Below, one piece after another: positions 1,715 to 2,587 of a stretch of 64,000 nt of DNA. Both the position numbers and the translations under genes were made by a program. Each line of letters opens with the position of its first letter. Position 1 is the first letter of the stretch. Under the pieces are notes generated by a model. The model made no database searches, had not been told where the DNA came from, and worked only from the letters and a program-made list of their open reading frames with translations. The DNA comes from Escherichia coli (GTDB lineage: Bacteria; Pseudomonadota; Gammaproteobacteria; Enterobacterales; Enterobacteriaceae). Where the stretch lies: NCBI RefSeq assembly GCF_002854065.1, contig NZ_CP024147.1; one strand, written 5' to 3'.

Positions 1715-2587
1715 ATGGATGCACCGAGTACCACACCGCATGATGCAGTGTTTAAACAATTTTTAATGCACGCGGAGACGGCTCGCGACTTTCTGGAGAT
1801 ACATTTGCCAGTGGAATTACGAGAACTTTGTGACCTCAACACGCTTCATTTAGAGTCGGGGAGTTTCATTGAAGAGAGCCTGAAAGGACACAGCACGGAC
1901 GTGCTCTATTCCGTGCAAATGCAGGGCAATCCCGGTTATCTGCATGTTGTGATTGAACACCAAAGCAAGCCGGATAAGAAAATGGCCTTTCGCATGATGC
2001 GTTATTCTATTGCTGCCATGCACCGGCATCTGGAGGCGGATCACGATAAGCTGCCGCTGGTGGTGCCGATACTGTTTTATCAGGGCGAGACCACACCTTA
2101 TCCGCTCTCAATGTGCTGGTTTGATATGTTTTACTCGCCGGAGCTGGCGCGACGCGTCTATAACAGTCCTTTTCCGCTGGTGGATATCACTATCACACCG
2201 GATGACGAAATCATGCAGCACCGGCGGATTGCGATTCTCGAACTACTGCAAAAGCATATTCGCCAGCGCGACTTAATGTTATTGCTGGAGCAACTGGTCA
2301 CGCTGATTGACGAAGGGTACACTAGCGGAAGTCAGTTAGTTGCCATGCAAAACTATATGCTGCAACGCGGTCATACTGAACAAGCGGATTTGTTTTATGG
2401 TGTGCTGAGAGGCAGGGAAACGGGAGGGGAGTCTATGATGACGCTGGCGCAGTGGTTTGAAGAGAGGGGAAGACAGGAGGAAAGGCAAGAATTCGTCCTG
2501 CGTCTTCTGAATAAAGGAATGTCTCGGGAAGACGTTGCAGAGATGGCAAATTTACCCCTTGCCGAGATTGATAAGCTGATTAACTAA
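1715..2587 (+). CDS. rpnC: Recombination-promoting nuclease RpnC (YhgA-like, PD-(D/E)XK transposase_31 family)
   Basis: Track ORF 1658..2587; likely start is the ATG at 1715 (MDAPSTTPHDAVFKQF..., typical Rpn N-terminus); C-terminal tail contains the QWFEE...GMSREDVAE...EIDKLIN module. Confidence 0.85.
   Translation: MDAPSTTPHDAVFKQFLMHAETARDFLEIHLPVELRELCDLNTLHLESGSFIEESLKGHSTDVLYSVQMQGNPGYLHVVIEHQSKPDKKMAFRMMRYSIAAMHRHLEADHDKLPLVVPILFYQGETTPYPLSMCWFDMFYSPELARRVYNSPFPLVDITITPDDEIMQHRRIAILELLQKHIRQRDLMLLLEQLVTLIDEGYTSGSQLVAMQNYMLQRGHTEQADLFYGVLRGRETGGESMMTLAQWFEERGRQEERQEFVLRLLNKGMSREDVAEMANLPLAEIDKLIN

Follow-up and report, generated by a model that had tools for sequence, protein, structure and literature searches.

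Does rpnC, an Escherichia coli gene for a putative DNA nuclease, also encode within its own 3′ end, and in the same reading frame, a small protein that restrains that nuclease? The question arose at the rpnC locus of a 64 000 nt stretch of E. coli DNA (contig NZ_CP024147.1), referred to throughout as the window, where an initial annotation made from the sequence had noticed a strong ribosome-binding site and a pair of ATG codons in front of the C-terminal module of the gene, and had proposed that they form the start of an intragenic antitoxin. We examined the locus, the putative internal start and its conservation across the Rpn family, and compared the result with the published literature on these nucleases. 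The features of the locus are collected in Table 1.

Table 1. Features of the rpnC locus, with positions in the window
Feature	Position	Strand	Basis
rpnC full-length CDS (RpnC-L, 290 aa), PD-(D/E)XK nuclease	1715..2587	+	RefSeq annotation of identical strain CUWW06; Pfam; NCBIfam
YhgA-like nuclease domain (residues 7-207), catalytic residues intact	1733..2335	+	Pfam match; alignment with K-12 RpnA-E
Internal Shine-Dalgarno sequence GGGAGGGGAG	2422..2431	+	Exact position; dG -10.8
Two in-frame ATG codons of rpnC-S, the second at 2438-2440	2435..2440	+	Position; homology to RpnA M244
rpnC-S ORF, 50 aa (49 aa from the second ATG), equal to the RpnC-L C-terminus	2435..2587	+	Translation
Four-residue repeat tract RGRQ EERQ, hypervariable between alleles and minimal here	2465..2488	+	Allele alignment
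Shine-Dalgarno-like AAGGGA before rpnC-Ss	2646..2651	+	Read from sequence; dG -5.3; 4 nt before ATG 2656
rpnC-Ss, 69 aa, N-terminal extension MEIKTRRETRQ, two more four-residue repeats than RpnC-S	2656..2865	+	ORF; direct repeats; TIGR01784
GC-rich inverted repeat, terminator-like	2926..2956		12 bp stem and T-rich tail, called on the minus strand; located between rpnC-Ss and the stop codon of panC

The rpnC locus encodes a nuclease of the Rpn family

The window is part of the E. coli chromosome, and the gene order around the locus is yadE-panD-rpnC-small ORF-panC-panB. Positions 1600-2960 showed 100 % identity to strain CUWW06, from which the annotated start of rpnC was taken. The rpnC frame is also open from an ATG at 1658, 19 codons 5′ of the annotated start at 1715, giving a longest ORF of 309 aa; the Shine-Dalgarno scores of these two upstream starts were -7.6 (1658) and -8.4 (1715), and the K-12 sequence carries several base differences near 1660-1665. 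Beyond the small ORF, the GC-rich inverted repeat is probably the terminator of panC, and from its position there it may also end the rpnC/rpnC-Ss transcripts.

The RpnC-L protein matched the Pfam family PF04754 (Transposase_31) over residues 7-207 with an E-value of 2.2e-87, and the NCBIfam model TIGR01784 with 266.9 bits (cut-off 52.1). Judged by these two matches, RpnC-L is a member of the Rpn (YhgA-like) family of recombination-promoting nucleases. Alignment with the K-12 paralogues RpnA-E placed residues D10, D62, E81 and Q83 of RpnC in the columns of RpnA D11, D63, E82 and Q84, the mutation of which leads to loss of RpnA activity (PMC5350276).

The conservation of the locus was assessed in a collection of 5,426 complete E. 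coli genomes, together with a plasmid collection that was used to find homologues. Only 24 records matched the whole locus at an identity of at least 99 %, and 5,274 records fell in the 90-95 % band, showing that the rpnC allele of the window is rare.

A strong internal ribosome-binding site precedes two in-frame ATG codons

The Shine-Dalgarno motif GGGAGGGGAG reported by the initial annotation is present within rpnC, but had been placed at 2421-2430, one base to the left of its true position. The motif is separated from the ATGATG sequence by 3 nt (TCT), not by the 4 nt originally counted. The two consecutive ATG codons had been located correctly and both are in the rpnC frame, and translation from the first codon reproduced exactly the 50 aa product described, which is identical to the C-terminus of RpnC-L and is called RpnC-S here.

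To place the strength of this motif in context, pairing with the 3′ end of 16S rRNA was calculated for 467 internal in-frame ATG codons, drawn from every ORF in the window with a length of 150 aa or more. ATG 2435 and ATG 2438 shared first rank out of the 467, with an anti-Shine-Dalgarno duplex energy of -10.8 kcal/mol (mean -2.4; first percentile -8.4). Near-equal matches were seen at 52885 on the plus strand, within rseP (51733-53130; -10.5 kcal/mol), and at 39082 on the plus strand, within cdaR (38656-39831; -10.3 kcal/mol); these could reflect chance or additional internal starts. At the level of coding, the motif specifies Gly-Gly-Glu as GGA GGG GAG. The GGA-GGG combination is used in just one of the 107 Gly-Gly pairs of the long ORFs of the window, in which GGA makes up 11.5 % and GGG 15.6 % of Gly codons.

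The start region is well conserved. The Shine-Dalgarno motif and ATGATG were kept in seven divergent rpnC alleles, with a single G>A substitution at the edge of the motif, while the repeat tracts downstream varied widely, and the 53 nt at 2414-2466 were found at an identity of at least 99 % in 4,495 of the 5,426 complete genomes. The 20 nt upstream of the start and the ATGATG itself correspond base-for-base to K-12 rpnC (NC_000913.3). Over the 250 nt upstream of the start, K-12 differs from the window by nine substitutions, and residues 1-242 of the two proteins differ at two amino acids. In RNA folding predictions, the probability of being unpaired was 0.58 for the Shine-Dalgarno motif and 0.69 for the ATG codons, compared with 0.42 for the surrounding 260 nt, suggesting that the start site would be somewhat more open than the flanking RNA.

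A simple consensus scan of rpnC 5′ of the internal start returned no sigma-70 promoter, and inspection of 2200-2434 by eye gave no convincing candidate. As neither approach yielded a convincing -35/-10 pair inside rpnC, the internal promoter was left unplaced.

The internal start of rpnC has been described in E. coli K-12

The internal start has a direct precedent. Zhong et al. (2023, PNAS 120:e2307382120; PMC10400941) studied all five K-12 rpn genes by start-site ribosome profiling and by SPA-tagging of the small proteins, obtained start signals and tagged products for every one of the five, and established that the RpnS proteins act as antitoxins of the toxic full-length Rpn nucleases. The statement in the initial annotation that YhgA-like Rpn nucleases are toxic and are restrained by small proteins from internal 3′ starts was therefore well founded. 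For K-12 rpnC itself, an Onc112/retapamulin ribosome-profiling signal lies within the gene, demonstrating internal initiation, and the SPA-tagged RpnC-S small protein was visible on immunoblots. RpnC-dependent induction of the SOS reporter dinD-lacZ was blocked by RpnC-S only when the two products had equally many repeats of four amino acids (PMC10400941). In addition, differential RNA-seq placed a transcription start inside each of the K-12 rpn genes, giving rise to a shorter and commoner mRNA (PMC10400941).

Further steps have been demonstrated for RpnA only, namely the physical complex of RpnA-S with RpnA-L, the inhibition of DNA cleavage in vitro and a crystal structure in which RpnA-S forms a dimeric three-helix bundle whose first helix is long (PMC10400941; PDB 7TH0). 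Mutation of RpnA M244 abolished production of RpnAS, and the repeats of the Rpn small proteins lie 8-20 residues past the initiating Met (PMC10400941). Protection against phage has been shown only for the plasmid system RpnP2 (PMC10400941), and RpnC was one of the weaker K-12 paralogues in assays of toxicity and SOS induction (PMC5350276). When the literature was searched for later studies of RpnS and RpnL, only Zhong et al. (2023) and its commentary were retrieved.

The intragenic antitoxin start in rpnC is thus already known, having been published in 2023 for rpnC itself. Because the start site in the window matches the K-12 site base-for-base, the earlier interpretation is supported, for a phenomenon that has been published for the same gene. 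From raw sequence, the initial annotation correctly rediscovered a gene-within-gene toxin-antitoxin system that was already in print, and so adds no new biology.

The internal start is conserved across the Rpn family

The sequences of the five K-12 paralogues were extracted from NC_000913.3 and aligned with the RpnC protein of the window. A Shine-Dalgarno sequence followed by an ATG was found at one shared alignment column in all five rpn genes. In four of them the shared-column start was the best internal site of the gene, and in rpnB it was the second-best. The same column holds RpnA M244, the residue at which the crystallized RpnA-S chain of 7TH0 begins (MTIAERL). The proposal that the rpnC layout represents an intragenic antitoxin is consistent both with the position of the start in this column and with its identity to the tested K-12 site.

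The arrangement extends to more distant relatives. Six plasmid homologues with 32-55 % identity, from Salmonella, Klebsiella, Shigella, Vibrio, Rickettsia and E. coli, retained the Met within the motif LMT(I/L/V)A, and all six showed a purine-rich tract 5′ of this Met and tetrapeptide repeats 3′ of it. In the window the repeat tract begins at residue 11 of RpnC-S, within the published interval of 8-20 residues after the initiating Met. The RpnC-S protein of the window is, at 50 aa, the shortest sampled; the K-12 protein has 60 aa and other sampled alleles specify 66, 70 and 74 aa. Across seven alleles, this variation in length (50-74 aa) was confined to the repeat tract, apart from a two-residue C-terminal LI in K-12-type alleles.

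The match of the C-terminal module to Pfam DUF4351 (PF14261; residues 250-287, E-value 0.04) was too weak to convince, and a match to Pfam HTH_7 (E-value 0.086) was also weak. When PDB chain sequences were searched with RpnC and RpnC-S, the only matches were to a designed repeat protein and, weakly, to helix-turn-helix (HTH) entries. RpnA-S was missed in this search since the C-terminal domains are too divergent, and 7TH0 was recovered only when the RpnA tail itself was the query.

RpnC-S is predicted to form three helices

An AlphaFold2 model of the 50 aa RpnC-S protein was built on a 12-sequence alignment. The model contained helices at residues 4-26 (with a kink at 12-13), 31-37 and 42-49, with a mean pLDDT of 81, and is consistent with the three-helix bundle described for RpnA-S. 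When the model was compared with the PDB by Foldseek, 7TH0 was absent among the best 50 matches listed, and all matches had E-values above 0.1 and were to generic HTH-like folds (KorB, resolvase, DeoR). Given that the query is a helical model of only 50 residues, we regard the absence of 7TH0 as uninformative and not as contrary evidence. A relation of the small protein to HTH motifs, detected by HHpred, has been reported (PMC10400941).

Either ATG codon could serve as the start of RpnC-S

It is plausible, from the sequence, that translation of RpnC-S begins at 2435, at 2438 or at both, yielding a product of 50 or 49 aa. That initiation takes place at the second ATG, with the first coding only for an internal Met that is peculiar to RpnC, is a real possibility to which we would give slightly less than an even chance. 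The Met common to all five K-12 paralogues, proven by mutation to be the start in RpnA (M244), falls in the column of the second of the two RpnC Met residues, and the column of the first Met is occupied by Leu or Ile in the other K-12 paralogues. Crystallized RpnA-S likewise begins at M244 (7TH0). At the nucleotide level, GGGGAG (2426-2431) corresponds, codon by codon, to the AAGGAG of rpnA, rpnB and rpnE, and lies 6 nt from ATG 2438. These points are balanced by a 5′ extension of the Shine-Dalgarno sequence that is specific to RpnC, in which the GGAGG core (2423-2427) stands 7 nt from ATG 2435, a spacing that is also near-optimal. Moreover, the duplex energy is equal for the two codons, both are kept in all sampled rpnC alleles, and the main text of PMC10400941 is silent on which of them serves. 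The product of 50 aa given by the initial annotation is accordingly an exact translation whose length could be one residue shorter, as the family-conserved Met is the second ATG.

A model for rpnC as a one-gene toxin-antitoxin module

We propose that rpnC is very probably a toxin-antitoxin module in which one gene gives two products. RpnC-L would act as a PD-(D/E)XK DNA endonuclease which, if left unchecked, could damage the DNA of its own cell. Ribosomes would also initiate internally, at the GGGAGGGGAG motif and the ATG pair (2435/2438), and, if the gene behaves as in K-12, would do so largely on a shorter and commoner transcript that originates from a promoter within the gene. The resulting RpnC-S is predicted to be a three-helix protein of 50 or 49 aa, whose sequence is that of the RpnC-L C-terminal domain. 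Its long first helix may contact the same domain in RpnC-L, keeping the nuclease inactive, and the specificity of this pairing would depend on the length of the first helix, as set by the number of four-residue repeats (the minimal RGRQ-EERQ in the window). RpnC-L and RpnC-S share one reading frame, and therefore their repeat number is always equal. We infer the function of the window allele from the identity of its start site to that of K-12, from its intact catalytic residues and from the shared frame of the long and short products.

The G-rich motif might instead be a by-product of Gly-Gly-Glu coding, or an SD-like element at which elongating ribosomes pause, with no separate protein being made in the window strain. 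SD-like hexamers do arise inside genes by chance, and the internal ATG codons at 52885 (rseP) and 39082 (cdaR) are preceded by sequences that are nearly as strong. However, the Gly-Gly codon choice at the motif is the rarest available, and the same arrangement is seen again at this column in each of the paralogues and in the distant plasmid homologues despite differing residues (KHKES, LQKER, QEKEK, QHGDA and ADGEG). In K-12, moreover, the identical sequence produced a peak in start-site profiling, and the small protein was detected by its tag (PMC10400941), and we consider a coding or pausing origin of the motif to be extremely improbable.

Alternatively, RpnC-S could be produced but have a main role other than that of an antitoxin, either as an HTH-like DNA-binding autoregulator or because the antitoxin at work is the downstream rpnC-Ss. 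Many antitoxins also act as repressors, and the fold neighbours of the RpnC-S model are HTH DNA-binding domains (KorB, resolvase, DeoR), although all are weak, as is the Pfam HTH_7 match (E-value 0.086). Against an autoregulator as the main role, K-12 RpnC-S supplied in trans counters RpnC-dependent SOS induction in a repeat-number-specific manner (PMC10400941), which argues for protein-protein pairing. As for rpnC-Ss, its first helix in the window is eight residues longer than that of RpnC-L, so that by the published rule cognate pairing should fail, and it is missing from ~70 % of genomes. In the light of these findings, a main role other than antitoxin seems very unlikely.

The small protein has a second, stand-alone copy downstream of rpnC

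The initial annotation did not mention that the small protein is encoded a second time, by a stand-alone copy at 2656-2865. Past its N-terminal extension, rpnC-Ss is a diverged but intact duplicate of RpnC-S. The two copies are connected by direct repeats at 2440-2490/2688-2738 (80 % identity) and 2474-2585/2746-2857 (85 %), with spacings of 248 and 272 nt. The difference of 24 nt between these spacings makes rpnC-Ss two repeats longer. The protein matched the C-terminal part of TIGR01784 with an E-value of 2.8e-8.

A gene of this kind, rpnCSs, has been described in some E. coli strains (PMC10400941), and we found the block that carries rpnC-Ss, at a coverage of at least 80 %, in 1,550 of the 5,426 complete genomes. 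Its RefSeq labels include pseudogene, transposase fragment, hypothetical protein and 'RpnC/YadD family protein', and in the identical strain CUWW06 it is recorded as a pseudogene 'missing N-terminus'. The lack of any annotation for rpnC-S in the records examined, and the mislabelling of the intact rpnC-Ss, are a reminder that in-frame internal starts systematically go unannotated.

In all five sampled carriers, including the window, the TLAQWFEE..KGM segments of rpnC-Ss and of the resident RpnC-L/RpnC-S are of unequal length, being 8-16 residues apart, and this difference is not in every case a multiple of four. Taken together with the published specificity rule, which is based on a one-repeat mismatch experiment (PMC10400941), the mismatch in first-helix length suggests that rpnC-Ss should not be a cognate inhibitor of the resident nuclease. 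The shortest sampled repeat tract, standing beside a longer stand-alone copy, makes the window a handy natural pair for testing the repeat-number specificity rule.

Speculatively, and with a likelihood that we judge to be low, the mismatched rpnC-Ss might be a non-cognate cassette and not a redundant antitoxin, serving as a recombination reservoir for the C-terminal specificity helix or, alternatively, acting as a decoy for a phage factor directed at RpnS. As a reservoir, the 80-85 % identical direct repeats could allow a new specificity helix to be swapped or fused onto the nuclease, and K-12-type alleles, whose tail is two residues longer, like that of the Ss copy, would be possible products of such events. 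We compared the K-12 tail with the intragenic S and the downstream Ss sequences as its possible sources, and the coding similarity was even (85.5 % versus 86.4 %), so this comparison gives no grounds for a claim. Only the K-12 flank past the stop codon matches the sequence that follows rpnC-Ss in the window. As this would be expected under deletion and fusion alike, we make no claim about the origin of the K-12 arrangement.

Comparison with known systems

The closest known system is K-12 rpnC/yadD (b0132), the same gene in the same chromosomal position, flanked by panD and panC, with the same Shine-Dalgarno sequence and ATGATG. The two alleles share a plan of nuclease domain, internal start, four-amino-acid repeat helix and conserved tail. 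They differ in the repeat tract, which is RGRQEERQ in the window and KGIEKGIQQGRQEVSQ in K-12 (RpnC-S of 50 versus 60 aa), and at the end of the tail (...DKLIN in the window and ...DKVINLI in K-12). In contrast to the window, K-12 is without the ~300 bp block that bears rpnC-Ss.

RpnA-L/RpnA-S (yhgA) is homologous to the RpnC of the window over its full length (NCBIfam RpnA model, E-value 3e-94). RpnA-S has 49 aa, about the same size as RpnC-S, and its internal start is at the same column. The C-terminal domains of the two proteins, however, share only ~19 % identity. The Shine-Dalgarno sequence of RpnC is also the stronger (-10.8 versus -8.5) and, unlike that of RpnA, is followed by two ATG codons. 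It was with RpnA that the formation of the complex and the inhibition of the nuclease were measured.

The rpnE-ypaA pair (RpnE-Ss) resembles the window in having a stand-alone small-protein copy with its own start directly downstream of an rpn gene, although RpnC-Ss and RpnE-Ss have independent origins (PMC10400941). The parallel extends to their annotation, ypaA being recorded as a pseudogene in K-12 as the window copy is in CUWW06. In the K-12 record NC_000913.3, ypaA and rpnD are both marked as pseudogenes, and rpnC is listed without an internal product. An in-frame internal start that produces a shorter C-terminal product is likewise found in the K-12 defence locus mcrB/mcrB-S, a protein family unrelated to Rpn, where mcrB-S modulates the full-length nuclease complex. 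Whereas mcrB-S is annotated in the K-12 RefSeq record, rpnC-S is annotated in none of the records examined.

Elsewhere in the window, two Rfam matches exceeded the gathering score: the t44 RNA at 45257-45343 on the plus strand (83.5 bits), and the HtrA 5′ UTR thermometer at 37055-37100, also on the plus strand (77 bits).
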